Shown here piece after piece: positions 5,104 to 54,096 of a stretch of DNA of 64,000 nucleotides. This DNA is from Tolypothrix carrinoi HA7290-LM1 (lineage in GTDB: Bacteria > Cyanobacteriota > Cyanobacteriia > Cyanobacteriales > Nostocaceae). Position numbers and translations under genes: made by a program. Under the pieces are notes generated by a model, which saw nothing but the letters and a program-made list of their open reading frames with translations, was not told the origin of the DNA and ran no database searches. The DNA lies in the NCBI GenBank assembly GCA_019358935.1, contig JAHHIK010000039.1, positions 1 to 64,000 of the forward strand, in the 5' to 3' direction. Each line of letters opens with the position of its first letter. Position 1 is the stretch's first letter.

Positions 5104-5889
5104 TCACTCACTCCTCATCGCTTTCAATTTTGATGTGAACAACTCAGAGCGATCGCTTTTTTCTGGGGTGAATTGTCCAATTGGCGGATGATTGGCAGCA
5201 GGTAAACACAATGGCTGTTGATTCAAAGAAGATGTTTGGCTTGAAGCATAAGATGCCTGATGCCCAAGGGAATATTTAGACTCTTTAGTTGTGGAAGATG
5301 GCAAAAGGTTCTTATCTTTTGTACTTCCGAATGTTTGTTCGTGTAATAACTTTTCTTCACCGATCGCTTGTATAGACTTATTGTTGCGTTTATACCCATT
5401 ATTGACGCTTGCAGCAGTCGCTGAATTGTCAGTTAGAGAATTTGCGGTTGGTGGTAATTTAGGAGTATTTTCTTTATTTTCAGATATAAACGGTGAAGTT
5501 AGCTCAGTTAAGCTTTCGGGAAATTTGCTGCAAATCAAACGTTCAAATTCCATGTTGAAATGAAAAATCGCCTGCCCGCGTCGCTGCCAAAATGTTAAGA
5601 TTTGCTGAACTGAAAACGCTTTGTAACGACCTTGATACAATGCTTCAATCACCGCTAAGTGTAGCCAATTAACTGGGTACTGAGTTTGCCAACGGTTAAC
5701 TAACTCACTGGCACTGTACCCACTGAGGTCAAAACTATAGTGAATTAATAAAGCGGCTGCCAAGTCGAGCCACTCGTGTGCTGGGGTTTGGGAGTCACCC
5801 TTCATATACTCCCCCTCAAAGGGTTGAGCGCTGTGCCGCCCGGTTGAGCGATGTAGTGTGGCAGAGGTGTCCAGGGTTGGTGTGAGCAT
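5104..5889 (-). CDS. Conserved cyanobacterial hypothetical protein carrying a 31-aa in-frame repeat insertion
   Basis: LLIHYSFDL...W...LAVIEALYQGRYKA.SVQQIL.FWQRRG motif; ATG at 5889 preferred over the GTG at 5976. Confidence 0.75.
   Translation of the reverse strand: MLTPTLDTSATLHRSTGRHSAQPFEGEYMKGDSQTPAHEWLDLAAALLIHYSFDLSGYSASELVNRWQTQYPVNWLHLAVIEALYQGRYKAFSVQQILTFWQRRGQAIFHFNMEFERLICSKFPESLTELTSPFISENKENTPKLPPTANSLTDNSATAASVNNGYKRNNKSIQAIGEEKLLHEQTFGSTKDKNLLPSSTTKESKYSLGHQASYASSQTSSLNQQPLCLPAANHPPIGQFTPEKSDRSELFTSKLKAMRSE
5767..5859 (+). mobile_element. Nested 45-nt + 48-nt structured repeat elements (degenerate)
   Basis: GAGCCAC...GTAGTGT outer element, GAGTCAC...GTGCCGC inner element (5792-5839); total 93 nt. 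Confidence 0.6.
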
Positions 5890-6016
5890 CTGGCTATCAG
5901 CTTCTGGCAAGAGGTATAAATTTTCAACCCATGCATATAGCCTCAAAGTGCTTTTAGCTACAGGGTAAGTTACCAAGTGCTTTTAAGTTTATAGGAAGTG
6001 TTTTTTATTCTACTTG

Positions 6017-7483
6017 TCAACTGCTTTCATTTGAAACGATATACGGTGATTTTATTGGAGAATATTTTTTGATAGCGACTAATGCTTGGTAAACCATTGC
6101 TGCTACTTCGGCGCGTGTGGCAAAGCGAGAAGGCTCGATTTGCTTGGGGTTTGGGTAATTAACTACGATTTTTTGTTGTGTGGCAGTTGCAACTGCTGTG
6201 CGGGCATAATCAAGAATGGTATTACGGTCACTGTAGCAGAGTAAGGCATCTTTATCAGCCGGTGGCAGCTTCAGTCCGTTAACTAGAGAGACAATCACTT
6301 GTAGTCGCTGGACATTTTGATGCGGACCGAAAGTGCGATCGCTTTTTCCACCAACAAAACCACCCATAGCCGCGATTTGAATCGCATTATAAGCCCAAAA
6401 ATCCTTGGGTACGTCAATAAAATCCGGTGCTGGGCGTCTGGGAGTAGGATTAAATGCTGCCGCTACTAAAGCTGCATAATCGGCGCGAGTCATCGGCTTA
6501 TCTGGGGCAAAAGTCCCATCAGGCAAGCTGTTAATCAAATTCTTGCTTGCCAATGCTTCCACAAAATCCGCTGCCCAATGTCCAGCCAAATCGGAAACAA
6601 TAGCGATAAACTCGACTGGTCCCTTCACCTGTGCCGGATTTAACTGATTACCTACTAATACTAGTTTTTGTGATGTGGCATTATTTAAATCAAATTGACC
6701 GTTATCGCGAAAAATATTTTTGCCATTGTCTTGTTTATTACCTAAATTAGGATTTGCATTACCGTTGACTAACACTCCACCTTGGGTATTATTGGCAATT
6801 AGATTCTGACGTAGCACCGGTTGCGCTTGTCGAGAAAGAGCGATCGCTGTCCGATTTTCTATGAGTTTGTTCTTTACAAGCATTGGGGCAGCAGAATCAC
6901 TAATCGCGATGCCAATAACATTTTTTTGAAAAATATTTCGCAGCACTTCCCCTTTGCTATTACCAGCCATCACCAAGCCACTGACAGCGTTTTTCACAAA
7001 CACATTATCTAGAATTGCAGGTTTGGCACTCCCCGTCACAAACAAAGCTTCCCGACCGCATTTGGCAAAAGTATTATTAACCAAAGAGGGTGCCGTCGAT
7101 TCAATCCAAACACCAGTGCCTTTTGCGGTTGTATTTGCCACAGTCACACCCATGACAGTCGCTTCACCTAGCAATAGCAGCGTGATATTTTGCCATCCAA
7201 AGCTTTGGCTTTGATATGCACCACTCCCCGAAATCACAATTCCTCGACCTTTAGTGCCTTCGTTACCCACCACCAGCACCCCATCGGGGATCAATAGCGG
7301 AAATACCTCTCCAGTCAGAGAATTGTAGTTTCCCTCCGCCAGTTGAATAATTGTAGATTTTGTGCTCACTTTTAAAGCACGGCTAATGGTTTTAAACGGA
7401 CTGAATTTGGAGTCACCTGGATTTTTATCACTCCCAGTCGCAGGATTAACGTAAAGTGTTTTAACGACAGTCGAGTTCACCAT
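6017..7483 (-). CDS. DUF1565 beta-helix protein with C-terminal SLH (S-layer homology) domains
   Basis: LYVNPATGSD...PFKTISRAL; SDLAGHWA, PDGTFAPD..MTRA, FIDVPKDFWA, ATRAEVAA SLH motifs. Confidence 0.9.
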   Translation of the reverse strand: MVNSTVVKTLYVNPATGSDKNPGDSKFSPFKTISRALKVSTKSTIIQLAEGNYNSLTGEVFPLLIPDGVLVVGNEGTKGRGIVISGSGAYQSQSFGWQNITLLLLGEATVMGVTVANTTAKGTGVWIESTAPSLVNNTFAKCGREALFVTGSAKPAILDNVFVKNAVSGLVMAGNSKGEVLRNIFQKNVIGIAISDSAAPMLVKNKLIENRTAIALSRQAQPVLRQNLIANNTQGGVLVNGNANPNLGNKQDNGKNIFRDNGQFDLNNATSQKLVLVGNQLNPAQVKGPVEFIAIVSDLAGHWAADFVEALASKNLINSLPDGTFAPDKPMTRADYAALVAAAFNPTPRRPAPDFIDVPKDFWAYNAIQIAAMGGFVGGKSDRTFGPHQNVQRLQVIVSLVNGLKLPPADKDALLCYSDRNTILDYARTAVATATQQKIVVNYPNPKQIEPSRFATRAEVAAMVYQALVAIKKYSPIKSPYIVSNESS

Positions 7484-7572
7484 ATAGTTAGTAGTCAATT
7501 GTCAAAAGTCAACAGTCAAAGGTCAATACTTAAAAGTCAATAGTCAAAGGTCAACAGTCAACAGTCAAGCTT

Positions 7573-7761
7573 GAAGTTTCATGTTCTGAACTCGAAGTTT
7601 CGTGTTCTGAACTCGAAGTTTCATGTTCTGAACTCGAAGTTTCATGTTCTGAACTCGAAGTTTCACGTTCTGAACTCGAAGTTTCATGTTCTGAACTCGA
7701 AGTTTCACGTTCTGAACTCGAAGTTTCGTGTTCTGAACTCGGAATTTCATGTTCTGAACTC
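7573..7761. repeat. 21-nt tandem repeat x9 (GAAGTTTCATGTTCTGAACTC)
   Basis: Nine contiguous units, no unique spacers. Confidence 0.95.
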
Positions 7762-7971
7762 GGAGTTTGGTGCTAATAAAGCTCAAATTCTCCCTTCATC
7801 CCCCACTCCTCCACTCCTCCACTCCCCACTCCTCCACTCCTCCACTCCTCCACTCCCCACTCCCCACTTCCCCACTCCCCCACCTCCCAATCTCCCTAAA
7901 TTCCGTTGCATTTTGAAAATATTGAATTAATATCTTTTAATGTCCAATTCAGCAATCAGGCGAATTTAACG

Positions 7972-8979
7972 ATGATTTCAGTTGATGGTCTGAGTAAAAT
8001 ATACGGCTCAACGACAGCAATAAGTGATGTTACTTTTAACGTCTCACAAGGGGAGATTTTAGGGTTCTTGGGACCCAATGGTGCTGGTAAAACTACAACC
8101 ATGCGAATTTTAGCTGGTTATTTACCCGCGACGAGTGGGACAGTCAGAATTGCTGGCTACGATGTCTATGAAAATTCTCTCTTAGTACGGCAACGAATTG
8201 GCTATTTACCGGAAACACCACCGTTATATCCAGAAATGACGGTTGAAGGCTTTTTGTATTTTGTGACGCGGATTAAGGGAGTACCGGCAGGCGATCGCAC
8301 TAACAAGGTTAGAGCAGCGATTATACGCTGTAATTTAGAAGATAAGAGTAATGTAATTATTCGTAAACTTTCTAAGGGATATCGTCAAAGAGTTGGCATT
8401 GCTCAGGCGATCGTCCACGATCCACCAGCTATCATTCTAGATGAACCTACTGTTGGTCTCGATCCCCGGCAAATCATTGATGTGCGGAATTTAATTAAAA
8501 GTCTCGCGGGTACTCACACAATTATTCTCTCTACGCACATTTTGCCAGAAGTGAGCATGACCTGTAACCGCGTAGCCATCATTAATCGCGGGAAAGTAGT
8601 AGCAACTAATACGCCAGAAAATCTGATGACGCAGTTGACAGGTGGTTCTGGATATGAATTGGAAATTGCCGGAGAACCTGCCTTAGCCAAACAGGTATTG
8701 CAAAACTTACCTGGTGTAAGTTTGGTAGAATCAATGCCGAGCGGAATGCACGGTCATACCCCAATTGCGGATAACCGAGGTTATTTGCGGGTAATATCGC
8801 AACCAGGAAGCGAACCAGGACACGAAATTGTCATGGCATTGGTGCGTGCGGGATTCGGTTTATATGAAATGCGACGTGTCAGCGCTACTTTAGAAGATGT
8901 ATTCTTGCAACTGACTACAGAAGAAAGAAATTTGCCATCTGAGGTAGAGGATGAAGCCAAAGAAGGAGAAGCAGCGTAA
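7972..8979 (+). CDS. ABC transporter ATP-binding protein, GldA-like
   Basis: GPNGAGKTT Walker A, LSKGYRQR signature, ILDEPT Walker B. Confidence 0.9.
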   Translation: MISVDGLSKIYGSTTAISDVTFNVSQGEILGFLGPNGAGKTTTMRILAGYLPATSGTVRIAGYDVYENSLLVRQRIGYLPETPPLYPEMTVEGFLYFVTRIKGVPAGDRTNKVRAAIIRCNLEDKSNVIIRKLSKGYRQRVGIAQAIVHDPPAIILDEPTVGLDPRQIIDVRNLIKSLAGTHTIILSTHILPEVSMTCNRVAIINRGKVVATNTPENLMTQLTGGSGYELEIAGEPALAKQVLQNLPGVSLVESMPSGMHGHTPIADNRGYLRVISQPGSEPGHEIVMALVRAGFGLYEMRRVSATLEDVFLQLTTEERNLPSEVEDEAKEGEAA

Positions 8980-9792
8980 ATGGGTGTAGTGCTGGGTAAT
9001 ATTATTGCCATTTATCGCCGCGAGTTACAAAGTTATTTTGTATCGCCTTTAGCTTATGCGATCGCGAGTATTTTTTGGCTGTTGTCTGGATTGTTCTTAA
9101 TCTTGATTTTGCTCGGACCCGAAGGTATCTTACCAACAGTTGCCGCCTTAGATTTACAAGGGCAACAAATCGGGGTGCCAGTACCACCTATCGATGTACC
9201 CTACGAATTTGTCAGGGCATTTTTAGATCGTATGGGATGGCTGTTGCTGTTTGTGCTGCCAATTCTTTCAATGGGACTGTATGCGGAAGAACGCAAACGC
9301 GGCACTTTGGAACTTTTAGCGACATCCCCTGTAACTAATTGGGCAGTAGCTGTAGGTAAGTTATTGGGGGTGTTGACATTTTTTACAACAATGGTAGCAC
9401 CACTGCTGGTGTTTGAAGCGATCGCCTTAAGTGGATCGACTCCACCAATATCCCCAACAATTCCCTTGTTAGGTCATCTAGCATTAATCTTACTAGCAGC
9501 GGCGATATTATCCTTAGGAATGTTTATTTCCTCTTTAACAGACAGCACAATTCTATCTGCCGTCCTCACATTTGCAGTAATTTTATTGCTGTTGTTCGTA
9601 GATTTAATCGCCAAAAATATTGGCGGTGTCGCGGGAGAAGCTTTAGGTCATTTATCCTTACTCAAACATTACAACACCCTTGTACAAGGAATCTTCGACA
9701 CCAGCAGCTTGATATTATTTGCTAGTTACATTATCTTAGGCATCTTCCTCACGGCACAATCAATTGATGCATTGCGATTTCAACGTAATTAG
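8980..9792 (+). CDS. ABC-2 permease, GldF-like
   Basis: RELQSYFVSPLAY, EERKRGTLELLATSP, about 6 TM helices. Confidence 0.9.
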   Translation: MGVVLGNIIAIYRRELQSYFVSPLAYAIASIFWLLSGLFLILILLGPEGILPTVAALDLQGQQIGVPVPPIDVPYEFVRAFLDRMGWLLLFVLPILSMGLYAEERKRGTLELLATSPVTNWAVAVGKLLGVLTFFTTMVAPLLVFEAIALSGSTPPISPTIPLLGHLALILLAAAILSLGMFISSLTDSTILSAVLTFAVILLLLFVDLIAKNIGGVAGEALGHLSLLKHYNTLVQGIFDTSSLILFASYIILGIFLTAQSIDALRFQRN

Positions 9793-10012
9793 TTAGTGGG
9801 TAGTGGGTAGTGGGTAATGGGTAATGGGTAATGGGTAGTGGATAGTTGATAGTGGTTAGTGGATAGTGGTTAGTGGATAACTGTTGACTGTTAACCGTCA
9901 ACCAACAACTATCAACCAACAACTATCAACCAACAACCAACAACCAACAACCAACAACCAACAACTAACAACTAACCACCAACCACCAACCACTAACAAA
10001 TAACAACTAATA
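9791..10012. repeat. Inverted pair of STRR tracts (TGGGTAG/TGGATAG ... CAACAAC/CAACTAT)
   Basis: G-rich heptamers followed by roughly complementary C-rich heptamers. Confidence 0.85.
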
Positions 10013-10015
10013 ATT

Positions 10016-11707
10016 ATGAAAAACATCGCAAAACGAAGACTTTGGAAATATCTATTTTGGTTTGGTCCATTTTTACTTGTTGCCGGCTTAACAGCGGGGT
10101 TAGTATCGCAAAAGTGGGGAGCAATTCCATTAGCATTTTTGATTGCGGGAATTGTCATCATCGGCTTTTGGTTAATCTGGCAAGCTCAACGAACTAACTG
10201 GTGGGGACGTCGTTCTACTCAAGCTGGTACAAATGCTTTAGTTGCGACTCTTGCAGTGTTGGCGATTTTAGGTTTAATTAACTTCTTAGGCACTCGCTAC
10301 CACCTGCGGACAGATTTAACTGATACTCAGTTATTTACGCTTGCGCCGCAATCACGAGAATTGGTACAGTCTTTGCAAAACCCTGCAAAGGTATGGGTGT
10401 TTGATGTGAATCGAAATCCCCAAGATTTAGAATTACTGGAAAATTATCGCCGACAAAGTTCCAAATTTAAGTTTGAATTCGTCGATCCACAAGCAAGACC
10501 AGGACTAGCAGATAAATTTGGTGTCAAAGATTATGGAGAAGTTTATCTAGAATCTGAAAATAGACGACAGTTAGTGCAAGTGGTGAATCAAAACGAACGT
10601 CTGTCAGAAATTCGCTTAACTAATCGCTTACAACAAATCAATAGCACCACCACAGCTAAAGTTTACTTGCTTCAAGGTCACGGCGAACGGCAACTTGCGG
10701 CAGGTGAAGGTGCAATTTCCCAAGCAGTTCAAGCGTTAAGTGATAAAAATTTCACTACATCAGCGCTAAATTTGGCAGAAAAGTCAGCAGTTCCTGATGA
10801 TGCAGCTGTTGTAGTTGTCGCAGGTGCGAAAAAAGCTTTGTTTGACAATGAAGTAAAAGCTTTGCAAACCTATCTCAATCGAGGTGGTAATTTGCTGTTG
10901 ATGATCGATCCAAATACTGACTCTAAACTTGATAGTTTACTACAACAGTGGGGCGTGCTACTTGATAATCGTTTAGCAGTCGATGTTTCAAACAACGTCG
11001 GGATTGGTCCTGCGGTTGCTTTAGTGACAGAATACGGACAACATCCAATTACTAAAGATTTTGGTAATGGCATTTCGCTTTATCCGCTTGCCCGTCCTTT
11101 AGAAGTTACCCCAGTATCTGGTGTCGAGTCTACCACGTTGATAGTAACTAAACCTTATCCCAGCAGTTGGGCAGAAAGCGACTTGCAAAGCGAAAATTTG
11201 CAGTTTAATCAAGGAAGCGATCGCAAAGGTCCATTAACTTTAGGTGTAGCATTAAAGCGCAAACTATCAGCCAAACCTCAGTCTCAACCTACCCCCACTC
11301 CCCCCCTCTCCCCCTCTCCCACTCCTCCCCTCCCCCCCTCTCCCACTCCCCCCTCTCCCACTCCCTCATCTCCCCCCACGCCAGTCGCCTCAACGGAGGG
11401 AACCTCCGCACGGCGCTGGCTCCTCTCCCCAACTTCCACCGAATCACGTTTAGTAGTGTTAGGAAATTCCGATTTCGCTACCGATGGTTTGTTTCAACAA
11501 CAGTTAAACGGAGACGTATTTCTCAACTCAGTTACTTGGTTGAGTCAGCAGGATCAGCAACCTCTTTCGATTCGTCCCAAAGAAGTCAAAAACCGTCGCA
11601 TTAACATCACAGGGACGCAGGCAAATCTTTTAGCATTATCATCTCTGGTAATATTACCCCTGATTGGGTTAGCAGGAGCAGCTGTTCTTTGGTGGAAGCG
11701 ACGGTAA
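10016..11707 (+). CDS. GldG-family ABC auxiliary component
   Basis: DLTDTQLFTL, FVDP, YLLQGHGE, YLNRGGNLLLMIDP, RLVVLGNSDF, N.DVFLNSVTWL, C-terminal TM. Confidence 0.9.
   Translation: MKNIAKRRLWKYLFWFGPFLLVAGLTAGLVSQKWGAIPLAFLIAGIVIIGFWLIWQAQRTNWWGRRSTQAGTNALVATLAVLAILGLINFLGTRYHLRTDLTDTQLFTLAPQSRELVQSLQNPAKVWVFDVNRNPQDLELLENYRRQSSKFKFEFVDPQARPGLADKFGVKDYGEVYLESENRRQLVQVVNQNERLSEIRLTNRLQQINSTTTAKVYLLQGHGERQLAAGEGAISQAVQALSDKNFTTSALNLAEKSAVPDDAAVVVVAGAKKALFDNEVKALQTYLNRGGNLLLMIDPNTDSKLDSLLQQWGVLLDNRLAVDVSNNVGIGPAVALVTEYGQHPITKDFGNGISLYPLARPLEVTPVSGVESTTLIVTKPYPSSWAESDLQSENLQFNQGSDRKGPLTLGVALKRKLSAKPQSQPTPTPPLSPSPTPPLPPSPTPPSPTPSSPPTPVASTEGTSARRWLLSPTSTESRLVVLGNSDFATDGLFQQQLNGDVFLNSVTWLSQQDQQPLSIRPKEVKNRRINITGTQANLLALSSLVILPLIGLAGAAVLWWKRR
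11378..11422 (-). mobile_element. 45-nt structured repeat element inserted in frame in the GldG-like gene
   Basis: Reverse complement GAGCCAGCGCCGTGCGGAGGTTCCCTCCGTTGAGGCGACTGGCGT. Confidence 0.8.
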
Positions 11708-11709
11708 GG

Positions 11710-11885
11710 AGATGGGGGGACAAGGGAGACAAGGGAGACAAGGGAGACAAGGGGACAAGGGGACAAGGGGACAAGGGGAAGAATTATTACCAATTACCAA
11801 TTACCAATTACCAATTACCAATTACCAATTACCAATTACCAATTACCAATTACCAATTACCAATTACCAATTACCAATTACCAAT
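11710..11885. repeat. GGACAAGGG-type 8/9-mer tract followed by a (CCAATTA)n STRR array
   Basis: Direct reading of the periodicity. Confidence 0.9.
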
Positions 11886-11894
11886 GACTATCAC

Positions 11895-12515: not shown

Positions 12516-12658
12516 GTAATTTAAGCACTTACTTGGGTTGTTGCTGATTTATAAAGTACCATTAACTCACTAATCTATTAATCAAATAGACAAGAGTTCA
12601 ATAAAAAATAAATGTTAAAATTCCGCCTTGCAGCAGTTAATAACTTTGATGTCAATCA

Positions 12659-13369: not shown

Positions 13370-13383
13370 GTACACTGATGTAC
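13370..13383. promoter_or_regulatory. Candidate NtcA site
   Basis: TGTA-CACTGATG-TACA matches GTA-N8-TAC; no -10 box at canonical spacing found. Confidence 0.3.
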
Positions 13384-23629: not shown

Positions 23630-23808
23630 AACCACCCTAAATTTCAGGTTTTGCATTTTATTTGAGCGAGGTTCCTTAGCAGTAGTAGAAGTACGCCGCT
23701 CAAATTTACTACATTAGTTGAAATTTCTTTTCTACCCTTGGGAGGAAGAAATAGGATTTGCAGTTGTGTGATAAAAAATAGGCGGTACATAGTCAGCCTT
23801 TTTTGATA

Positions 23809-26808
23809 ATGCCAGACGCGGAAAAGTTCCAAAACCAGTTGGCTGATAATTTGTTATCGTTGCACCAGCAGATAAATAAACAAGCGAATTACTCGATGGT
23901 CGCAACTGTTGAAGAAGGAATGGTGCTGCAACTTGCTGATGGTAGTATCCAAGCTGGCAATACCGCTTGTGAGCGCATTCTTGGACTGACTGCCGAGCAG
24001 CTGATGGGACGGACTTCGGTGGATCATCCTTGGCAATCGATTCATGAAGATGGCTCTCCTTTCTGGCGTGAGACTCACCCAGCGATGGTAGCATTGCAAA
24101 CAGGAAAGCCATGTTTGAATGTGGTGATGGGTTTGTATAAGCCAAATGGTCAGCTAGTCTGGCTATTGCTGAACTCACAACCTTTATTTTTGGCTGGAGT
24201 CACAAAACCCTACGCTGTTGTGACAACTTTTTCTGAGATAAAAAAATCGGCTGTCTCAAGACACCAGGCAGCAAGTATATCTGAACAAGATAGAGAAATT
24301 GGCTTGCGACATAACGAACAATTTGAGCTAGCAGCGGTTAATTGCCTATTTTACGATTGGGAGATTTCACGCGGTACTGTAGAAAGAACTCAAGGTTTGA
24401 CTGCGCTTTTGGGATACACTCAACAAGAAGCCTCACCGACGCAAGAATGGTGGCAGCAGCTTGTGCATCCGGATGACTTGCAACGAGTTGATGAGGAATT
24501 TAAAATCAGTTTAGCAAAAGGCGATCGCTATAAAATTGAGTACCGGGTGCGTCATAAAGATGGTCGTTATGTGTGGCTGCAAGATCGAGGATTTGTTGAG
24601 CGGGATGCAGATAATCGTTTGGTGAGGATAGTTGGCATTATAATTGACATTAGCGATCGCAAAAAAACCGAAGCAGATTTACAACAAAGTGAAGAACGCA
24701 TTCGGCTTGCAACCACAGCGGCTAATCTCGGTATGTGGTTTTGGGATCTAACCACCGATGAGTTAATTTGGACTTCTAAGTGTAAACAACTGTTTGGATT
24801 TCCACCTGACACCACAATTACTTACGAGCTTTTTCTGAATACTTTGCATCCAGAAGACCGGCAACGCACCGATGAAGCTGTTAGTAGCGCTCTTGCCCGA
24901 AAGTTAGATTATGATATACAATACCGTGCTGTTTGGGCTGATAAAAGCGTGCATTGGCTTGCGGCTAAAGGTCGAGGCTTTTATGATGTTTTTGACAAGC
25001 CAATACGCATGATGGGAACAGTTCAAGATATTAGCGAACGCAAGCAAGCTGAAGAAACTCTGCGTCAAAGTGAAGAACGCTACCGTTTCTTAGCTGATAC
25101 TATTCCAGAAATGGTCTGGACAACTAATGCTGAAGGTGAGGTAACTTACGTAAATCAGCGTTGGCAAGAATACACCGGGTTAAATTTAGAGGAAACTGCT
25201 GGCTACGGCTGGAGAAAAGTACTGCATCCGGATGACTTGGAAAAATCTGCACAATTGTGGACACAAGCACTCTCAAACGGTACACCTTACGAAATTGAAC
25301 ATCGTTATCTGAGAGTTGCTGATGGCACATATCGTTGGCATTTAGTACGAGGTTTACCGATAAAAGACGACCAAGGACGCATCATCAAATGGTTTGGCAC
25401 TTGTACAGATATTCATCAGCAAAAACAAATCGATGAAGAACGTGCCCAAATTTTAGAGCGAGAAAAAGCCGCTCGTCTGGAAGCAGAAGCAGCTAACCGC
25501 ATCAAAGATGAGTTTCTTGCCGTACTTTCTCACGAATTGCGATCGCCTCTCAATCCGATTTTAGGATGGGCAAAGTTACTTAAAAGCCGCAAGTTTGATG
25601 AAGCAGCGACATTTCGGGCTTTGGATACCATCGAACGCAATGCGAAATTGCAGATTCAACTAATTGATGACTTGCTGGATGTCTCCCGCATACTGCGAGG
25701 TAAACTATGTTTGAATTTTGCTGCCTTTGATTTAGCAGTTGTAATTAATGCCGCAATCGAAACAGTCAAATTGGCTGCACAAGACAAATCTATCGAAACA
25801 CATCTGCAAATTGAACCGAATGTAGGTAAAGTTTTGTGTGATTTCAATCGCTTGCAGCAAGTCGTCGGCAATTTGCTGAATAATGCCGTTAAATTTACCC
25901 CCGCAGGGGGACGAATTGATATTAGGTTGTCGGTGGGCAGGGGGCAGGGGGGAGGGGGACAAGGGGGACAAGGGGGACAAGGGGGACAAGGGAGGCAAGG
26001 GGGACAAGGGGGACAAGGGGGACAAGGGGAGGACACTTCTGTGCGTATTTTCCCCCCCGTTAAGGAACGTGTCCGTGGACAAGGAGGAATTTCTCCCTTG
26101 TCTCCCCCCTCCCCCCCTCTCCCCCTCCCCCACTCCACCTATGCCCAAATCACCGTTACCGACACGGGTAAGGGGATTTCCAGTGAATTTCTGCCCCACG
26201 TTTTTGAATATTTTCGCCAAGCAGATAGCAGCACTACCCGGAATCATGGAGGGCTGGGGCTGGGTTTGTCGATTGTTCGCCATCTGGTAGAGTTACATGG
26301 CGGCACTGTGACGGCTGAAAGTGCAGGAGAAGGAAAAGGGGCGACTTTTATTGTGAGATTGCCTTTAATCGAGGAAAGCAGCAAACAAGAGAAGGAAAAT
26401 AAGACAGAGGCAGAGAATGTTAACTCCTTACCTCTGGCAGGAATACGAATATTGTTAGTTGATGATGAGATAGATACACGCGAGTTAATGAGCTTTTTGC
26501 TACAACAGCATGGAGCGACTGTAAGTGAAACTTCATCGGCAAGTGAGGCGCTAAAAGCGTTTGCGGAATCGCCGCCAGATATATTACTGAGTGATTTAGG
26601 AATGCCAGTGGTGGATGGCTACAGTTTAATTAGTCAAATCAGATCGATGTCTCCCAAACAAGGCGGAGAAATTCCGGCGATCGCTCTTAGCGCTTATGCT
26701 GGAGAAAGCGATCGCGATCGGGCATTTGCCGCAGGTTTCCAAAAGCACCTCGCAAAGCCAGTAGAACCGACGGAATTACTCGCTTTGATTGTAGATTTGC
26801 TTGGGTAA
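23809..26808 (+). CDS. Multi-PAS hybrid histidine kinase with C-terminal REC
   Basis: Four PAS/PAC domains (HPDD/HPED), LSHELRSPL, NAVKFT, DTGKGI, LLVDDE...SDLGMP...KP. Confidence 0.93.
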   Translation: MPDAEKFQNQLADNLLSLHQQINKQANYSMVATVEEGMVLQLADGSIQAGNTACERILGLTAEQLMGRTSVDHPWQSIHEDGSPFWRETHPAMVALQTGKPCLNVVMGLYKPNGQLVWLLLNSQPLFLAGVTKPYAVVTTFSEIKKSAVSRHQAASISEQDREIGLRHNEQFELAAVNCLFYDWEISRGTVERTQGLTALLGYTQQEASPTQEWWQQLVHPDDLQRVDEEFKISLAKGDRYKIEYRVRHKDGRYVWLQDRGFVERDADNRLVRIVGIIIDISDRKKTEADLQQSEERIRLATTAANLGMWFWDLTTDELIWTSKCKQLFGFPPDTTITYELFLNTLHPEDRQRTDEAVSSALARKLDYDIQYRAVWADKSVHWLAAKGRGFYDVFDKPIRMMGTVQDISERKQAEETLRQSEERYRFLADTIPEMVWTTNAEGEVTYVNQRWQEYTGLNLEETAGYGWRKVLHPDDLEKSAQLWTQALSNGTPYEIEHRYLRVADGTYRWHLVRGLPIKDDQGRIIKWFGTCTDIHQQKQIDEERAQILEREKAARLEAEAANRIKDEFLAVLSHELRSPLNPILGWAKLLKSRKFDEAATFRALDTIERNAKLQIQLIDDLLDVSRILRGKLCLNFAAFDLAVVINAAIETVKLAAQDKSIETHLQIEPNVGKVLCDFNRLQQVVGNLLNNAVKFTPAGGRIDIRLSVGRGQGGGGQGGQGGQGGQGRQGGQGGQGGQGEDTSVRIFPPVKERVRGQGGISPLSPPSPPLPLPHSTYAQITVTDTGKGISSEFLPHVFEYFRQADSSTTRNHGGLGLGLSIVRHLVELHGGTVTAESAGEGKGATFIVRLPLIEESSKQEKENKTEAENVNSLPLAGIRILLVDDEIDTRELMSFLLQQHGATVSETSSASEALKAFAESPPDILLSDLGMPVVDGYSLISQIRSMSPKQGGEIPAIALSAYAGESDRDRAFAAGFQKHLAKPVEPTELLALIVDLLG
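25935..26137 (+). repeat. In-frame (GGGGGACAA)n / CTCCCC-rich composite repeat in the HATPase domain
   Basis: Encodes (GQG)n...ISPLSPPSPPLPLP between the N and G1 boxes. Confidence 0.85.
26029..26076 (+). mobile_element. 48-nt structured repeat element inserted in frame
   Basis: GAGGACAC...GTGTCCGT; excision restores the GGGGGACAA unit exactly. Confidence 0.8.
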
Positions 26809-37328: not shown

Positions 37329-37346
37329 GACGATTTTGGATTTTGC

Positions 37347-37550
37347 GAAAAGTTGAGCCAGTCGCTTGGGGAGGCAGTGCGTTGCGGGGGTTCCCCCCGT
37401 TGTAGCACCTGCCGTCGGGTCTCCCGACTTGGGCGACCTGGCGTTGAGCGGAGGTTTCCGAGAAGTTTGAGCGGAGGTTTCCTCCGATCAAAGCTTCTCA
37501 ATCGCAAAGACGCTGCGCGAACGGTGTCCGATCAAAGCGCATTCTCGACG
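37347..37550 (+). mobile_element. Nested stack of small structured repeat elements within an ATTTTGG STRR tract
   Basis: 45-nt element inside a 45-nt element inside a CGAAAAGTT...GACG host element, plus further inserts. Confidence 0.75.
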
Positions 37551-46697: not shown

Positions 46698-48437
46698 ATG
46701 AAGTGGTGGACAACAGCAATAGCGAAAATTCAACCTAGAATCGCTATCCTCAGGCGACTAATCATATTATTACTGGTGTTGAGTATTACTAGTTGTGGCG
46801 AGAAAGCCAAGAGCCAAGAAGTGTCTGTTGGATACAAAGAAAATCAGCAACCGATTTCTCGGCAATTCTCTGAAGTTTCCCCACCAGCGGCAATTCAAGA
46901 ACTGCGATCGCCTTTAGATATTTATCAACCGCAAGTAACAATACTTACTCCCCAAGCTGATGAAGTTCTGCAAGACGACAAAGTTACAGTCCGCTTGCAA
47001 GTTAAGGATTTACCAATATTTAAAGACCCAAAATTTGATCTAGGACCGCACTTACACGTAATTCTTGATAATCAACCATACATACCTGTTTACGACCTGA
47101 ATCAACCGCTGGTTTTACCAGACTTATCCCCAGGTACGCATACTCTGCGCGTCTTTGCTTCTCGTCCTTGGGATGAAAGCTTTAAAAATGAAGGTGCTTA
47201 CGCTCAGACAACATTTCACATTTTCACGAAAAGCGACGATAATAATCCAGATGCGGCACTACCCCTGATAACCTACAACCGTCCTCAAGGCATCTACGGG
47301 GCAGAACCAATTCTACTAGACTTTTATTTAACTAATGCGCCTTTGCACCTCGTCGCTTCATACAATCCCAACAATCAAATTGCTGATTGGCGCATTCGTT
47401 GCACAATTAATGGTGAAAGCTTTGTTCTCGATCGCTGGCAGGCTATTTATCTCAAAGGCTTTAAACCCGGTAAAAACTGGGTAAAGCTGGAATTTCTCGA
47501 TGATAAGGGAAATGTTGTGAAAAATGTCTTCAACAGCACAATCAGGCTGATTACCTACGAACCGAAGGGTAAAGACACTCTTTCTAAAATCGTTAGAGGC
47601 GAACTTTCAGCAGAGCAAGTTCGCTCAATTGTAGACCCCAATTATACTGCTAAACCGACAACGGCTGAACCAATACCCGCACCAACAGTTGAAACAACAC
47701 CGGATAAGGTAGAGGAACCTGTTACTAAATCTGAATCTCCGGAATCAAGCCAACCAAAACAAGTTGAACCTCAACCAAAGCAAACAGAAACCCCTGAACC
47801 AACGATACCCGAACAATCTCCGCAAACTGATAAACCGAAATTTGGCGGCTTTTTCAATCGTCGCGGATCTAAGCTTCCCACTCCCCAACCACCTGTGACA
47901 CCATCTCCAAGTGTACCGCCGACACTACCTGAGATTATCGAGTCTCCGAAACCAGAACCGAAATTAGAACAAACAGAAACACCGGAATTAATTGAACCTC
48001 AACCAGAGGAAACGCCAAAATCAACGATACCTGAACAATCCACGCAAACTGATAAACCAAGATTTGGCGGATTTTTCAATCGTCGTAAGTTTTCCAATGC
48101 TTCTTCTGAACCTCAATTAAAGGAAACACAAACCCCGGAATCAACGATACCCGAACAATCCGCGCAACCTGCAAAATGGAGGTTTGGCGGATTTTTCAAT
48201 CGTCGGCAGCTTCCCAATGCTTCGCCATCTGAGAGTGTGTCTCCGACACTACCAGAGATTATCGATCCAGAAGCGCAATTAGAGGAAACGCCAACGCCAG
48301 AATCAACGACTTTACCGGAAAAAATCGCTCCCAATCCGGAAGAACCGGAATTAAAGCGATATTTCAACCCGCGTCAGTTTCCGGATGCTTCTCCTTCTCC
48401 AAATTTGCCGCTAAATCAGCCGGAAGATCGGGGGTAA
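46698..48437 (+). CDS. Putative lipoprotein: conserved cyanobacterial N-terminal domain plus Pro/Glu-rich repeat tail
   Basis: Lipobox-like LSITSC; GPHLHVILDN, PGTHTLRVFASRPW.ESFKN; three FGGFFNRR repeats. Confidence 0.8.
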   Translation: MKWWTTAIAKIQPRIAILRRLIILLLVLSITSCGEKAKSQEVSVGYKENQQPISRQFSEVSPPAAIQELRSPLDIYQPQVTILTPQADEVLQDDKVTVRLQVKDLPIFKDPKFDLGPHLHVILDNQPYIPVYDLNQPLVLPDLSPGTHTLRVFASRPWDESFKNEGAYAQTTFHIFTKSDDNNPDAALPLITYNRPQGIYGAEPILLDFYLTNAPLHLVASYNPNNQIADWRIRCTINGESFVLDRWQAIYLKGFKPGKNWVKLEFLDDKGNVVKNVFNSTIRLITYEPKGKDTLSKIVRGELSAEQVRSIVDPNYTAKPTTAEPIPAPTVETTPDKVEEPVTKSESPESSQPKQVEPQPKQTETPEPTIPEQSPQTDKPKFGGFFNRRGSKLPTPQPPVTPSPSVPPTLPEIIESPKPEPKLEQTETPELIEPQPEETPKSTIPEQSTQTDKPRFGGFFNRRKFSNASSEPQLKETQTPESTIPEQSAQPAKWRFGGFFNRRQLPNASPSESVSPTLPEIIDPEAQLEETPTPESTTLPEKIAPNPEEPELKRYFNPRQFPDASPSPNLPLNQPEDRG

Positions 48438-48483
48438 AAATTTTATTAGCTTTGTAGTAAGCGCTTAAGCGCTGAAGCGCTTA

Positions 48484-49392
48484 CTACAGTAAACTTAAGT
48501 GTAAATTTTCAGATAATGCTTCAATAAAGGCAAGTCCGGCTACAGAATTACCGACGCTATCTAAGGCGGGACTGTATGTGGCGATCGCTCCCTGTTTTGG
48601 TACTATCGTTAAAAGCGCACCGCTAATTCCTGATTTCATCGGTAATCCTATCCGGATGCTATATTTGCTAGATGCTTCATACAATCCACAAGTTAACATC
48701 AAGGCATTGACACAGCGCCGATTTTGTGGTAGAGTAATTTCGCTAAAAGATAAAATTTTTCCTAAACAAGCTAAGTTTTCAACTGTGCCAGAAAGACAGC
48801 AAATTTGCTCGTAAGTGTCTATAGCTGTTTGAACATCATCTATATATCCAGCTTCGCCAAGATATTGAGCGATCGCTTGATTGGTTTGAGAATTAACCGA
48901 ACGTACTGAAGCTAACATCTCTTCATCCAGCTTGAAGTTAGATTCGGCTAATTGATTCAGCCATTGACATAAATTTTGCGTGCGATCGCTTGGATTTTTT
49001 CCTGGTAATTTATCAGCAAGAGTAATTGCACCACTGTTAATCATCGGGTTGCGTGGGAAGGAGCGATCGCTAACCAGTTGCGTGAGAGAATTGAAGGGAG
49101 CATCCGATGGCTGAACCCCAACCCACTGAAAAACCGTTTCCAATCCCAGATGTTCTAGCAAATATAACAGCGAAAACGGCTTAATCGCGCTCATCAGCGG
49201 AAAAACACAGTTTGTATCTCCTGTACTGTAAGCTTGTCCTGATTTACAACAAATGTGAACTGCAAAGCAATGAGGATCGACAACAGCCAATTTAGGAATG
49301 CGGTTAGCAACTCGTCCTTGATCGGCTTGGGTTTTAGCTTGTTGTACCCAAGCGGCTAACTCAATGGTAGTTAGTGTTTCCAGTGTTTTCAA
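48484..49392 (-). CDS. glsA: Glutaminase
   Basis: IPKLA, F.LMSAIKPF, VG.QPS..PFNS, PRNPMINSGAI, TCGLY, GLP.KSG.SG. Confidence 0.92.
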   Translation of the reverse strand: MKTLETLTTIELAAWVQQAKTQADQGRVANRIPKLAVVDPHCFAVHICCKSGQAYSTGDTNCVFPLMSAIKPFSLLYLLEHLGLETVFQWVGVQPSDAPFNSLTQLVSDRSFPRNPMINSGAITLADKLPGKNPSDRTQNLCQWLNQLAESNFKLDEEMLASVRSVNSQTNQAIAQYLGEAGYIDDVQTAIDTYEQICCLSGTVENLACLGKILSFSEITLPQNRRCVNALMLTCGLYEASSKYSIRIGLPMKSGISGALLTIVPKQGAIATYSPALDSVGNSVAGLAFIEALSENLHLSLL

Positions 49393-49527
49393 GAATTATA
49401 TCAGATGGGGAGTGGGGAATGGGGCATGGGGCATGGAAAGAATCTTATTAGAACGCGCATCAAAAATTGAGCATCTTTAATTCCCAATGCCCAATGCCCA
49501 ATGCCCAATTACCAATAGATATATTTT

Positions 49528-51039
49528 ATGAACGTCCGTGTAAGAGCGCCAGAATTTCCGCAAAATTTCCCTTGGCTGAATACTGACAAACCGTTATCTA
49601 TTAAACAGCTTAAAGGCAGAGTTGTAATTTTAGACTTTTGGACATATTGTTGCATCAATTGTCTGCATATCTTACCAGACTTGAAATATCTCGAACAGAA
49701 ATATCAAGATAGTCTTACCATTATCGGCGTACATTCAGCTAAGTTTGACAACGAAAAAGAAACCGAAAACATTCGTCAAGCCATTTTACGTTACGACATC
49801 GAACATCCAGTTATAGTTGACAGTGGTTTTCGGATTTGGTCAGAATATACAGTGCGTGCTTGGCCCACCTTGATTGTAATCGATCCAGAAGGTTACGCGA
49901 TCGCCTCTATATCTGGTGAAGGTAAGCGCGATATTTTAGACGAGTTGATTGCAAAACTGATTTCCCAACACCGCGACAAAAAAACTATTAATTTTCAAGA
50001 ACTTAGCTTGACTTTAGAAAAACAGCGCCAACCGTTAATTACACCATTGGCTTTTCCCGGTAAAGTCTTAGCGACAAACGCGGGTTTGTTTATCGCTGAT
50101 TCTTTCCATCATCGAATTGTCATCAGTAACGAAGATGGAGAAATCCTGCATTTAATCGGTACAGGAAAACCTGGTTTAAGTGATGGTTCATTTCACCAAG
50201 CGCAATTTTTTGCACCTCAAGGAATGGCATTTGATGCCGAAAATCAACTTCTTTACGTTGCCGATACAGAAAATCATAGCTTGCGGCGCGTTGATTTGCT
50301 GACGTTAGTAGTAGAAACCATAGCCGGAACAGGTAAACAAAGCCAGAATATTCGTCCTCACGGTGGTGTTGCAAAACAAACAGCCTTGAATTCACCTTGG
50401 GACTTGGTGAAAGTCGGAAATATCATATATATAGCGATCGCAGGTTCCCACCAAATTTGGGAAATGAATCTGCAAACCGACATTATTAAGACTTATGCTG
50501 GCATTGGTGCAGAAGCTTGTATAGATGGTACACTCAGCGAATCAGCATTTGCTCAACCCAGCGGCATCACCACCGACGGGCAAGAATTATATATCGCCGA
50601 CAGCGAAGTTAGCACAATTCGCGGCGTAGGATTAATAGAACCGCAACAAGTGCGAACAATTTGCGGAAGTGGAGATTTATTCGGTTTTGGCGATGTTGAT
50701 GGACAAAGTTTTGATGTTCGGTTGCAGCATTGCTTAGGGATAGAATATGCCGATAATTATCTCTGGGTAGCCGACACTTACAACCACAAAATTAAATTAG
50801 TTAGCCCCAGCACCGGAAATTGTCAAACTATATTGGGTAATACCGCTGGATTCCAAAATGGACAAGGTAAACACAGCCGCTTTTTTGAACCTTCAGGTTT
50901 GAGCGTTCTCGGTTCTCGCTTATATGTAGCTGATACAAATAATCATGCCATTCGCTGCGTCGATTTAAACACCCTTGAAGTAACAACAATCCAATTTCTC
51001 GGATTATGTGCCCCAAATATGTGTATTCCCTCTCATTAA
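49528..51039 (+). CDS. Thioredoxin-like domain plus NHL-repeat protein
   Basis: LDFWTYCCINC, GVHSAKF, YVADTENH, FAQPSG NHL repeats. Confidence 0.92.
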   Translation: MNVRVRAPEFPQNFPWLNTDKPLSIKQLKGRVVILDFWTYCCINCLHILPDLKYLEQKYQDSLTIIGVHSAKFDNEKETENIRQAILRYDIEHPVIVDSGFRIWSEYTVRAWPTLIVIDPEGYAIASISGEGKRDILDELIAKLISQHRDKKTINFQELSLTLEKQRQPLITPLAFPGKVLATNAGLFIADSFHHRIVISNEDGEILHLIGTGKPGLSDGSFHQAQFFAPQGMAFDAENQLLYVADTENHSLRRVDLLTLVVETIAGTGKQSQNIRPHGGVAKQTALNSPWDLVKVGNIIYIAIAGSHQIWEMNLQTDIIKTYAGIGAEACIDGTLSESAFAQPSGITTDGQELYIADSEVSTIRGVGLIEPQQVRTICGSGDLFGFGDVDGQSFDVRLQHCLGIEYADNYLWVADTYNHKIKLVSPSTGNCQTILGNTAGFQNGQGKHSRFFEPSGLSVLGSRLYVADTNNHAIRCVDLNTLEVTTIQFLGLCAPNMCIPSH

Positions 51040-51139
51040 AACTCTCTCAAACTCTTTCCTCTGTGTACTCTGCGCCTCTGCGGTTCGTTTTAATATACGA
51101 TCATCTCACGCTAAGGCGCAAAGACGCAAAGAAAGAATT

Positions 51140-52153
51140 ATGACTGATGTTGCCGTAATTGGTGCTGGGATGGCAGGTTTAGTATGTGCCCAGCAGTTAA
51201 GTAAAGCTGGATACACAGTATTAGTGCTGGAAAAGTCCCGTGGTTTGGGGGGACGAGTTGCGACACGTCGTTTACATAATACTTGTGCAGATCATGGAGT
51301 GTGTTATTTAAAGCCAAAAGGTGAATTGTTGAAGCGTTTTGTTGAGTTGTTGAGCCGCCATCATATTCTAGAAGTATGGACAAACGAGCCAGAGTCAAAT
51401 TATATTGCACCTGAGGGAATGAGTGCGATCGCTAAGTTTCTCGCTCAAAATTTAGAAATTTCCCTCAATCAACGTGTCGAAACTATTGCCCCAATCGATA
51501 ATAAATGGCGTCTCACCTTTGAATCCAGCGATGAAGAATTAACCGCTGCATCAGTAGTTGTCGCTATTCCCGCACCTCAAGCTTTCACGCTATTAGCACC
51601 TTTAGGCGATTTAGTCAATAAAGCTTTTTTAGATAACTTGCGTTCTATAGAATTTTACCCCAGCCTGACTGTTATGGCTGGGTATCCCGCCGACTCGCAG
51701 CCACTTCCAAAGTGGAAAGCTTTAAGTTTTGTTGACAATCCTGATTTAGCGTGGATTGGTTTAGATAGCAGCAAGCGTCACAATTCTCAGCAACCGCTTT
51801 TTGTTATCCAAAGTAGTGCTGATTTTGCCCAACGTTATTTAGAATCTCTCGATTTACACTTAGCCGCACAGCAAATGTTGCAAAGCGCAAGTCAGTCTGT
51901 GCAACTTTCTTGGCTGGCTACTCCCGAATGGATGCAAGTACATCGCTGGCGTTATGCTTTTCCTCGCAATCCTTGGGACAAAGCTTTTTTATCTGCGGAA
52001 AGTTTTTTACCTTTGGTGTGCTGTGGTGATTGGTGTGGTGGCAAACTTGTTGAAGGTGCGATGCTTTCAGGATTAGCCGCTGCTGAGGAAATTAACAATC
52101 AGATGAGAAATGTACCTTTAAGCGGCTTAAATTTTTTAGAATTTCTTAATTAA
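51140..52153 (+). CDS. Renalase-like NAD(P)/FAD-dependent oxidoreductase
   Basis: VIGAGMAG, EKSRGLGGRVATRR, DHG, HRWRYA.P, CGDW..G..VEGA..SG; the upstream ORF extension is repeat DNA. Confidence 0.9.
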   Translation: MTDVAVIGAGMAGLVCAQQLSKAGYTVLVLEKSRGLGGRVATRRLHNTCADHGVCYLKPKGELLKRFVELLSRHHILEVWTNEPESNYIAPEGMSAIAKFLAQNLEISLNQRVETIAPIDNKWRLTFESSDEELTAASVVVAIPAPQAFTLLAPLGDLVNKAFLDNLRSIEFYPSLTVMAGYPADSQPLPKWKALSFVDNPDLAWIGLDSSKRHNSQQPLFVIQSSADFAQRYLESLDLHLAAQQMLQSASQSVQLSWLATPEWMQVHRWRYAFPRNPWDKAFLSAESFLPLVCCGDWCGGKLVEGAMLSGLAAAEEINNQMRNVPLSGLNFLEFLN

Positions 52154-52702
52154 TCATTTAATCTCTGGTTCAATTAATTTGCAATGATAGTAAGTTGCTA
52201 GGCTTGTAGCTTACATAATTCATTCGCAATAAATTTACAGTGCTTCTGGTTGCATCATCCACAGAAGCGCAGATTTTGGGTTTGCAATTTCAAAATGCTA
52301 AGGAATGTAAATTACAAAAAAAGTGGAAACTCATTCAACCTTTTTTTATAATTAATATTTCTTGTTAGTCGCTGGAATTGATCCCTATGAGTTTATGATG
52401 CATTTTGTGTAGTTTTGAGGCAAATATTCATAAATTTGAAATAATTGGCATTATCGGTATAAAGGACTTACACTTAATAAGTGTAGTGAGCATTGTTTTC
52501 AGGTTTATACTGTGAAGTACAAACTTGAACTTAGATAAGCGCAGTAAGTTTTCTAAGACTGTAACTGAAGAAAAAATTAGTTTTAGGGTTTAAGCATCTA
52601 ACACTCAAATTTCTTCTAACTTCATTGTTACGGTGAGATTTGCATTGAGAAATTTTCTCTGATTGACAAATTATTAGCTGGATAAAAAGGAACTAAAACG
52701 TT

Positions 52703-53077
52703 ATGCAAACAGTAGTGAAATTAACACCGCAATCAGTTTTAGGAGAGATTGAAAGCGTTTTGGATACTTATCCATACAATCCTTATCAACAAGCTTTTGC
52801 TATTGCTGATTTGCGCCAAGAGTTAATTTGCTTTGTTCTGAGTCGCATTCCTTGTCTTTACAGTGCAACTGATGATAAATCGCTTCCTGAGTACCAGCTA
52901 GACCAAGAGTGCTTGTTAAACTTTAAGTTACCTCGCAGTCCTTTAGAACAAACACTGTATTTGCAAAATATAATTCACCAAGGCATTTCTTCAATCATGA
53001 AAGAAAAATCAGATTGGATTAGCGATCGCCTTGAAACAGTCCAAGTAAATTCTCAACCATCATACTGGTTTGGTTGA
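52703..53077 (+). CDS. ComFB-family protein
   Basis: E.ESVL..YP..PYQQAFA..DLRQELI.FVLSRIP.LY pattern of cyanobacterial ComFB-like proteins. Confidence 0.65.
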   Translation: MQTVVKLTPQSVLGEIESVLDTYPYNPYQQAFAIADLRQELICFVLSRIPCLYSATDDKSLPEYQLDQECLLNFKLPRSPLEQTLYLQNIIHQGISSIMKEKSDWISDRLETVQVNSQPSYWFG

Positions 53078-53126
53078 ATCAAATTAATAGTAAAGACGTT
53101 CCACCGGAACGTCTCTACCGCGCATC

Positions 53127-53465
53127 CTAACTTTTACCCTTTAACGGGTCGTGTCCCCAATTCATTAAAGAATAACGCCAGTTTGTATCCTCAACATCAC
53201 CTTCAGGCTGCTGTGCTGAGTGACGATGTACATAACTGACGACTTTTTTCATGTGCGATAAATCATCGTCTGTGTAGTCATCTTTTTTCTTGTGCAATAA
53301 TTCAACGATGCGTTTACCGGATTTATGTCCGATTGACTCATCATCATCTTTTTTTTGTCCTACAGATTGAGATTCCTCTGTTTTCAACCAAGATTCGAGT
53401 TCCTTTGCTGTCATATTCACAGAAGCGTGAAACTCGTCAATCGCTGATTTGACATCTTTACTCAT
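53127..53465 (-). CDS. DUF3140 domain protein
   Basis: F...VNMT..EL..WL.T.ES..VG...ESIGH.SG..I...W.YSL.NWGHDP. Confidence 0.9.
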   Translation of the reverse strand: MSKDVKSAIDEFHASVNMTAKELESWLKTEESQSVGQKKDDDESIGHKSGKRIVELLHKKKDDYTDDDLSHMKKVVSYVHRHSAQQPEGDVEDTNWRYSLMNWGHDPLKGKS

Positions 53466-53474
53466 AACGCTAGA

Positions 53475-53690
53475 TTATTCCTCAATTTTGTCAAGAGAAC
53501 CAGGTTTGTGTGCTGCTTCTTTGCCGGTTTTATCGCTTTTAACCAAATACTCAGGATTATCTTTTGAGGCAGCGACGTGATGTCCTTTAATCTCTGTGGA
53601 TGAGGTGAGTTTCTTTTCCACCTCGCCGGTGGTTTCACCTTGGGAAGTTTTCCACTTAACTTTGTCACCTTTTTTCAATTCGTCACTCAC
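53475..53690 (-). CDS. DUF2945 (HVA1-like) protein
   Basis: GDKV.W.T.QG.T.G.V......IKGH.V.AS.D.P.Y.V.SDKTGK.A.HKP. Confidence 0.85.
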   Translation of the reverse strand: MSDELKKGDKVKWKTSQGETTGEVEKKLTSSTEIKGHHVAASKDNPEYLVKSDKTGKEAAHKPGSLDKIEE

Positions 53691-53786
53691 GGGTTTTTCC
53701 TGTTGAACGTTTTATACCCGTTAATTATGTTCACGCTATCAGGAAAAGTAATCAGTCGCTTGACAGAAGTTGCATTCGCAAATCTG

Positions 53787-54096
53787 ACCTCTCTCCAAAC
53801 CTCTCTCCTACGAGGAGAGAGGCTTTGATTTTCTCCCCTTCCGTCGTCGGAGAGAGGCTTTGATTTTCTCCCCTTCCCTCGTAGGGAAGGGGTTGGGGGT
53901 TAGGTCTGTTATTCAACTGCAAATCGCTATATATCGAACTGACGTAAAATCAATTGTGTGCAATAGACCTCTCTCCAAACCTCTCTCCTACGAGGAGAGA
54001 GGCTTTGATTTTCTCCCCTTCCCTCGTAGGGAAGGGTTGGGGAGCCAGTGCGTTGGGCGGCTCTGCCGACTTGAAGCACCTGGCGTGGTTAGGTCT
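53787..54096. repeat. Two copies of a palindromic GACCTCTCTCCAAACC...GGGTTAGGTC dispersed repeat
   Basis: Copy 1 (53787-53906) has an internal duplication; copy 2 (53966-54096) carries the 45-nt insertion. Confidence 0.85.
54042..54086 (+). mobile_element. 45-nt structured repeat element
   Basis: GAGCCAGTGCGTTGGGCGGCTCTGCCGACTTGAAGCACCTGGCGT; absent from the sister repeat copy. Confidence 0.85.

Follow-up and report, generated by a model that had tools for sequence, protein, structure and literature searches.

How DNA segments of less than 50 nucleotides (nt) move has been an open matter since the small dispersed repeats (SDRs) of Nostoc were described, and the question is raised again by the first 64,000 nt of contig JAHHIK010000039.1 of the cyanobacterium Tolypothrix carrinoi HA7290-LM1 (the window hereafter; its source genome is G000), in which seven copies of a 45/48-nt hairpin-forming unit occur. 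A sequence-only reading of the window had proposed that these copies belong to one family in which pairing is conserved, that they insert without duplicating the target, nest in one another and add peptides to proteins, and that they are moved in trans by an enzyme that it could not identify. We conclude that the family is a real, widespread and recently active micro mobile element, and that it is best explained, with about an even chance of being right, as a non-autonomous element moved in trans. All seven copies were recovered at the coordinates and on the strands proposed, the three clean ones fold into the stems claimed for them and the nested pair at 37355-37444 reads as described. The copies and the genes that hold them are as follows.

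5767..5859, plus strand: decayed old nested pair of 93 nt, a 45-nt outer copy and a ~48-nt inner copy at ~5792-5839 (inner limits approximate, sequence-read)
5104..5976, minus strand: host gene, conserved protein without Pfam match, holding the 93-nt insert in frame
11378..11422, minus strand: intact 45-nt copy of the main form, antisense and in frame in a Pro/Ser repeat linker, adding 15 residues
10016..11707, plus strand: host gene, ABC_transp_aux family (PF09822)
26029..26076, plus strand: copy of the 6-bp-basal-stem form, 48 nt long, which places 16 in-frame residues in a linker of Gly/Gln 9-mer repeats
23803..26808, plus strand: host gene, PAS-domain histidine kinase
37355..37444, plus strand: outer copy of 45 nt, interrupted behind its own base 16 (37355-37370 plus 37416-37444)
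37371..37415, plus strand: inner intact 45-nt copy
37345..37545 (limits approximate, read in the same way), plus strand: sister element, itself nested, which received the 90-nt pair
54042..54086, plus strand: intact 45-nt copy between divergent genes, within a G-rich hairpin repeat

Insertion without target duplication is borne out by exact empty sites in relatives for the 11378, 54042 and 5767 loci. The 11378-11422 copy has its exact empty site, devoid of any duplication, in G010 (L006) and the 54042-54086 copy in G003 (L156), and five further copies have likewise been found with exact empty sites free of duplication. The degenerate 93-nt block is furthermore a precise insertion, filled and decayed in all six congeners and with a letter-exact empty site in both G024 and G016. 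The notion that the element adds peptides to proteins is confirmed by the in-frame inserts, which amount to 15 residues at 11378-11422 and to 31 codons, on the opposite strand, in the open reading frame (ORF) 5104-5976. The 48-nt copy at 26029-26076 is absent in four of four congeners, yet none of them has a letter-exact empty site; its apical stem is disrupted by a block substitution, and reading the sequence with the copy deleted in silico restores the 9-mer register. At the 37355 locus no orthologous flank pair was recovered among the relatives compared. It should also be mentioned that the Pro/Ser linker of the PF09822 protein (window 11290-11440) ranges from 15 to 351 nt across relatives.

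At the scale of the genome, 401 G000 copies were queried against the DNA of four congeners, and the 53 comparisons with orthologous anchors comprised 3 filled sites, 4 clean empty sites and 46 in which the copy was absent and the surrounding repeat had turned over; the reverse test gave 31 comparisons, with 3 filled, 2 clean empty and 26 absent with the repeat turned over. Such comparisons are mostly silent on junctions, yet they show that turnover is very fast, and this turnover of host repeats is the reason why most copies escaped a gap-based BLAST run on 800 kb of G001. Nesting provides a further view of the insertion reaction, since excising the inner copy rebuilds the host copy in 67 self-insertions, which fall into 11 position/length classes, nine of them in opposite orientation, and most commonly lie after element base 16 (47/67). 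Head-to-tail copies were represented by chance matches only among the first 10 listed per pattern.

The ends together with a 5-bp basal stem were matched in G000 247 times at 45 nt, 40 times at 46, 43 times at 90 and 19 times at 91, as against 0-11 matches at every remaining length scanned between 30 and 99 nt, and a wider descriptor gave 416 simple copies in this genome and none in its block-shuffled counterpart. Among 344 simple copies, which range from 41 to 48 nt, 276 are 45 nt long. The earlier proposal that every length is a multiple of three does not survive at this scale, where 61 of the 344 depart from it, and neither does a strictly fixed length, as copies of 41-47 nt exist and 5 of 33 haplotypes of non-triplet length are found in at least two different flanks. 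Triplet lengths are seen in 30 of 33 copies in long ORFs and in 253 of 311 elsewhere (p 0.23, with crude ORF calls), a difference too small to demonstrate selection for frame; 45 nt is an intrinsic mode and not a strict ruler. The common core is moreover carried by forms with other ends, namely one of 54-60 nt with a small terminal hairpin and the same two G bases flanking it on both sides (82 pattern matches, a few of them spurious, and with empty sites), one of 44-50 nt with a 6-bp basal stem (27 found), a 51-nt sister form, and an A-start form in which the same core goes with a different target. Basal, middle and apical stems combine freely among copies, and most apical hairpins tested sit inside full elements, one of them also in a sister element. 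Rfam gave no match at gathering score in the window. The sister family seen at 37345-37545 shares the stem-bulge-stem-apical-hairpin layout of the 45-nt family but has an A/T-rich basal stem, nests in itself and is present in many copies genome-wide.

The family is by no means confined to G000. Of 300 genomes of family f1, taken as Nostocaceae by inference, 267 have the pattern, with none in the reversed control, and about 8,700 matches in 301 genomes correspond to 0-248 copies per genome, G000 being at the top with 248. An order-wide scan recovered it in 61 of 300 genomes (48 of 283 outside f1), and it is present in Trichormus variabilis ATCC 29413 and on named plasmids of Nostoc, Trichormus, Brasilonema, Gloeocapsa and Chroococcidiopsis. 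A phage collection gave no match, and viral contigs gave four loci. Among 20 loci in low-copy genomes, four are in or beside IS200/IS605-family genes, one is beside a group II intron reverse transcriptase (RT) and one is at a DDE transposase; one more site recurs in three records and is transposase-annotated in one. We read the copies at transposon genes as hitch-hiking on larger elements. As separate observations, copies lie within TnpB/IscB genes or their 3' regions (L116, L117, L121, L122 and G000 C25, C27, C30, C34), the latter being where the guide RNA is usually encoded, and two independent records (G000:C51:4076-4120 and L219) have a copy at one and the same site, which lies upstream of a reverse transcriptase gene and probably inside a group II intron. 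Among the proteins of distant cyanobacteria, in-frame copies were furthermore seen in one with DUF3987, in a type I polyketide synthase and in large kinase/cyclase proteins (L107, L108, L112, L114), and next to a TnpB gene is a cyanobacterial ORF (L122:3180-4256) whose Pfam matches are jacalin and ETX/MTX2 or aerolysin-like.

The 45-nt unit folds on one strand. Its basal stem of 5 bp is followed by a 1-base bulge and a second stem of 3-4 bp, and beyond an internal loop comes the apical stem, 7 bp long and closed by a 3-base loop; two bases at each end stay unpaired. Mutual information (MI) among 122 unique copies picks out pairs 4-42, 7-39, 8-37, 9-36, 10-35, 11-34, 15-29, 17-27, 18-26 and 20-24, with 16-28 weak. 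The claimed conservation of structure is upheld by an alignment of the 3 window copies and 90 of 93 from other sources (one duplicate and two more rows omitted, 92 distinct rows), in which 89.9% of cells are paired compared with 70.4% after shuffling, both partners vary in 11 of 16 stem pairs and covariation scores 0.409, a value that falls to 0.100 on shuffling and to no more than 0.111 on sliding, it being understood that the lower stems were preselected and that kinship among the sequences inflates such scores. A profile scan free of any pairing filter (172 unique 45-mers) gave 1376 cells for pairs 3-10, of which 1335 are Watson-Crick, 4 G-T, 9 A-C and 28 other, and at pair 8-37 there are 125 T-A and 41 C-G combinations and not one T-G. 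RNA stems usually show wobble intermediates, and since there are almost none here we lean to a DNA hairpin; of the earlier alternative of an RNA or single-stranded DNA element, the DNA part is thereby strengthened and the RNA part less favoured.

Insertion takes place in a single orientation, immediately 3' of the degenerate motif A/T, A/T, G, purine, G. At 104 distinct sites in metagenome and viral contigs, among the matches listed, the frequencies are 0.80 for A/T at -5, 0.87 for A/T at -4, 0.84 for G at -3, 0.83 for a purine at -2 and 0.72 for G at -1, where A never occurs, and the downstream signal is weak. Targets in G000 are mostly G-rich tandem repeats or other small repeats, and G-rich heptamer arrays are abundant in Nostoc (PMC4692102). 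There is no transcribed-strand bias, with 103 copies sense and 122 antisense.

Copies also appear to be rewritten in place. The same blocks of 4-10 substituted bases turn up in many copies, in congeners too, and one of them spans the junction of flank and element and is common to many loci with different cores, which argues for patch exchange between resident copies. An outside donor was looked for among the top contexts of 19 motifs and none was seen. In G009 one copy (L130) has about five block substitutions, which suggests that patches accumulate independently. That the variants and mosaics stem from assembly or sequencing artefacts is hardly credible, and is largely refuted for the element itself: short-read contigs do break at element repeats and the block substitutions do look odd, but full copies exist in finished plasmid records and single-contig genomes, and the same substitutions are found in two of five and three of five separately assembled genomes.

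What moves the element is harder to say. The proposed movement in trans agrees with the lack of an autonomous copy having these ends, as 11 long end-pairs were considered and a matching basal stem was found in none. The mover was not found among the candidate genes examined, which in G000 comprise 7 Y1, 18 RVT_1 and 18 integrase matches together with 2 partial IS110 matches; the Y1 and RT profiles do not fit. PF00078 (RVT_1) was rejected as a mover profile, being present in 49 of 61 genomes (25 of 28 carriers and 24 of 33 non-carriers, p 0.12), and G150 has 86 copies without RVT_1 while G248 has 11 copies without PF01797 and without RVT_1. Recent loss of the mover could lie behind carriers without Y1 or RT. 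Two stand-alone Y1 (HUH) genes of G000, at C51:17950-18294 and C46:32571-32882, have a catalytic motif resembling subclass 1.2, for which the excerpts of PMC6006769 list no repetitive extragenic palindrome (REP), and the C51 gene has several copies of another hairpin repeat at its flanks.

These results bear on three further explanations. It is rather unlikely that no dedicated transposase is involved, with host recombination or repair rarely capturing hairpins and gene conversion between dispersed tandem repeats spreading the copies. Such a process agrees with the repeated contexts of most copies, with the recurrence of the flank-to-element substitution at many loci and with the profiles, by which neither Y1 nor RT is needed and G248 has neither, but the ends, exact in over 100 target contexts unrelated to one another, the 11 classes of self-insertion on both strands and the exact insertion in unique coding DNA call for an end-specific reaction. 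An RNA intermediate copied by reverse transcriptase might be invoked because in all 30 top haplotypes, under RNA and DNA parameters alike, folding is better for the plus strand, which retains a conserved G-T pair, and because RT matches are frequent in G000 and in carriers. We nonetheless find it improbable, considering that the variable stem pairs are almost devoid of wobble intermediates, that three carriers (G150 included) have no RVT_1 and most non-carriers tested do, that sense bias is absent and that the cluster list, inspected informally, showed no evident 5'-truncated series. Finally, integration of a small circle via a short core by a site-specific recombinase, of IS110 or tyrosine type, would leave a 2-base core such as the two G bases on both sides of the 54-60-nt form, yet the main form and its target have no core in common, the IS110 matches of G000 are partial and copies do not cluster near its integrase matches, all of which makes this quite improbable.

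Returning to the non-autonomous element moved in trans, two parts of the process are established, namely the folding of the 45-nt unit on one strand into the three-stem hairpin and the arrival of whole units at new sites, with exact ends and neither duplication nor loss of target, 3' of the motif and mostly in G-rich tandem repeats, other small repeats and the element's own copies. The moving form is probably a single-stranded DNA hairpin that would be recognised via its lower stems. More tentatively, the reaction may be a single-strand transfer of HUH-like chemistry, because of the one-sided upstream motif and the lack of duplication, and the enzyme would then not simply be an ordinary IS200/IS605 TnpA of the genome; hallmarks of HUH enzymes are hairpin recognition and cleavage fixed by a conserved flanking target tetranucleotide (PMC6006769). 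Hairpin transfer with this chemistry is the likeliest single mechanism, at modest odds. It is furthermore rather likely that short-patch exchange among resident copies shuffles inner and outer stems and spreads block substitutions, while the restriction background, as discussed below, may remove certain junctions and decide which allele survives at each target, and in-frame copies in low-complexity linkers would be tolerated as 15-16 extra residues. We consider it possible, albeit unlikely, that the family represents an undescribed superfamily of single-hairpin single-stranded DNA micro-transposons, in which one common core is fitted with exchangeable ends (forms of 45, 48, 51 and 55-57 nt, of which some prefer targets of their own). 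Its mover would then be a strand-transfer enzyme from a family not yet tied to mobile DNA and probably chromosomal in these cyanobacteria, and the free strands of the elements would also rewrite resident copies in short patches.

Several observations are in poor agreement with such a mechanism and must be weighed against it. The ends of known IS200/IS605 elements are unlike those of the 45-nt element, which lie 2 bases from the stem, no transposition intermediate has been observed, and the conserved G-T pair (14-30) and two G-A pairs would be allowed by RNA too. G000 has no enrichment of copies near Y1, TnpB, integrase, RT or IS110 genes. PF01797 had to be dismissed as a mover profile, since it is present in 291 of 301 genomes, of the 10 genomes lacking a match 7 nevertheless carry 11-54 copies, and copies are missing from several genomes rich in PF01797. 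IS608-type insertion should favour the lagging strand (PMC6006769), yet no replichore strand bias was seen in either of two closed chromosomes when these were split into halves without mapped replication origins, that of G064 (n=77, p 0.70) and that of G120 (n=70, p 0.43). Neither did any guide-target covariation survive.

The last point deserves explanation, as element position 4/42 does covary with the first downstream target base in G000 (MI 0.31, permutation maximum 0.125), with counts of 22:6 versus 9:44 at distinct targets and p 0.004 at other loci. A GrCGyC site arises where one of the 4/42 alleles has C as its first downstream base, and methylases for this site are found in many cyanobacteria (PMC4390886). 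In a set of 50 genomes, which are related and were picked for high copy number and for which p-values overstate, the odds ratio of the association is 49 in 13 strong GrCGyC avoiders, 5.6 in 12 intermediate ones and 1.2 (p 0.20) in 25 weak avoiders (Spearman -0.52, n=32). A guide base pair between 4/42 and the target was rejected, the signal being gone in the 25 genomes not avoiding GrCGyC. The covariation tracks host avoidance of this site, and we infer that restriction is the cause, GrCGyC-creating junctions being those removed. If so, host defence shapes a mobile element at single-base resolution, and the case cautions that covariation of an element with its target need not imply guiding by base pairs. 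In G000 many six-base palindromes are very strongly avoided genome-wide (observed/expected down to 0.005), which suggests many past or present restriction systems.

Among known systems, the 45/48-nt inserts in the P6b region of the Nostoc trnL intron are similar in length, organism group and their formation of side hairpins. Identity with them was nevertheless rejected, since the sequences are unrelated and none of 12 records holds the 45-nt family; in four of four Nostoc long-loop records (L098, L100, L101, L103) the +45/+48 inserts consist of one repeat of 24 nt in which another, of 21 or 24 nt, is nested. The trnL P6b regions of congeners (L064-L093) show that genomes of one genus differ in heptamer class. 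REP/REPIN sequences with their RAYT enzymes and the ends of IS200/IS605 elements are imperfect hairpins of 21-65 nt with a short flanking motif and proposed single-stranded DNA movement in trans (PMC6006769, PMC3116915, PMC3733652), features in which they resemble the 45-nt family. The latter, however, has no GTAG-type tag in its position or flank profile, forms no paired inverted doublets, is frequent in coding DNA and flanks none of the 7 Y1 genes of G000 within 1200 bp. With IS200/IS605 elements it shares a one-sided target motif without duplication, but it has a single hairpin in place of separate left and right hairpins matching a TnpA element, and no long element with its ends was found. 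Cyanobacterial MITEs (miniature transposable elements with inverted repeats) such as Nezha, Muzha and others measure 77-541 bp and have terminal inverted repeats, to which Nezha adds flanking direct repeats (PMC3184786, PMC3542288). Like them the 45-nt family is non-autonomous and recently mobile, with empty and filled sites, whereas its 45 nt and its exact empty sites without duplication are at odds with the terminal inverted repeats of a DDE transposon and the target duplication that define MITEs.

Rickettsia palindromic elements, mitochondrial GC clusters and double-hairpin elements are structured inserts tolerated in frame, some of which nest; compared by description, they differ in size and host. 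A literature search found no description of the 45-nt family in the excerpts covered, the SDR1-8 sequences lying outside the comparison. The wide range of copy numbers (0-248), the exact empty sites, the defined target and the presence in laboratory strains open a way to search for the mover, first through association with gene content and subsequently through genetics, and an enzyme that scarlessly inserts 45 nt of structured DNA behind a 5-base motif would, if real, represent a new insertion chemistry.

The closest likeness is to the SDRs. Elhai and colleagues are said to have described SDR1-8 of Nostoc punctiforme in 2008 as repeats of 21-27 nt and to have proposed an RNA intermediate copied by reverse transcriptase. 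By that account, SDRs are tiny non-coding hairpins with compensatory changes, precise insertion, nesting, a preference for heptamer repeats and a mover that is unknown, and the 45-nt family likewise retains its pairing by compensatory changes and combines precise recent insertion with nesting and embedding in heptamer repeats, but with three stems it is twice as long. SDR5 has HIP1 as its target (PMC5861425, PMC4390886), as opposed to the G-rich target of the 45-nt family, and the excerpts of PMC5861425 report no SDR outside Nostocaceae, whereas the 45-nt family occurs in Chroococcidiopsis and Gloeocapsa as well. The family is also present in the very genome of the SDR survey, on plasmid pNPUN02 of N. 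punctiforme PCC 73102, and although we lean against it, part of the family may already be among SDR1-8. In kind, if not in length, target or host range, the 45-nt family is a longer variant of the SDRs.

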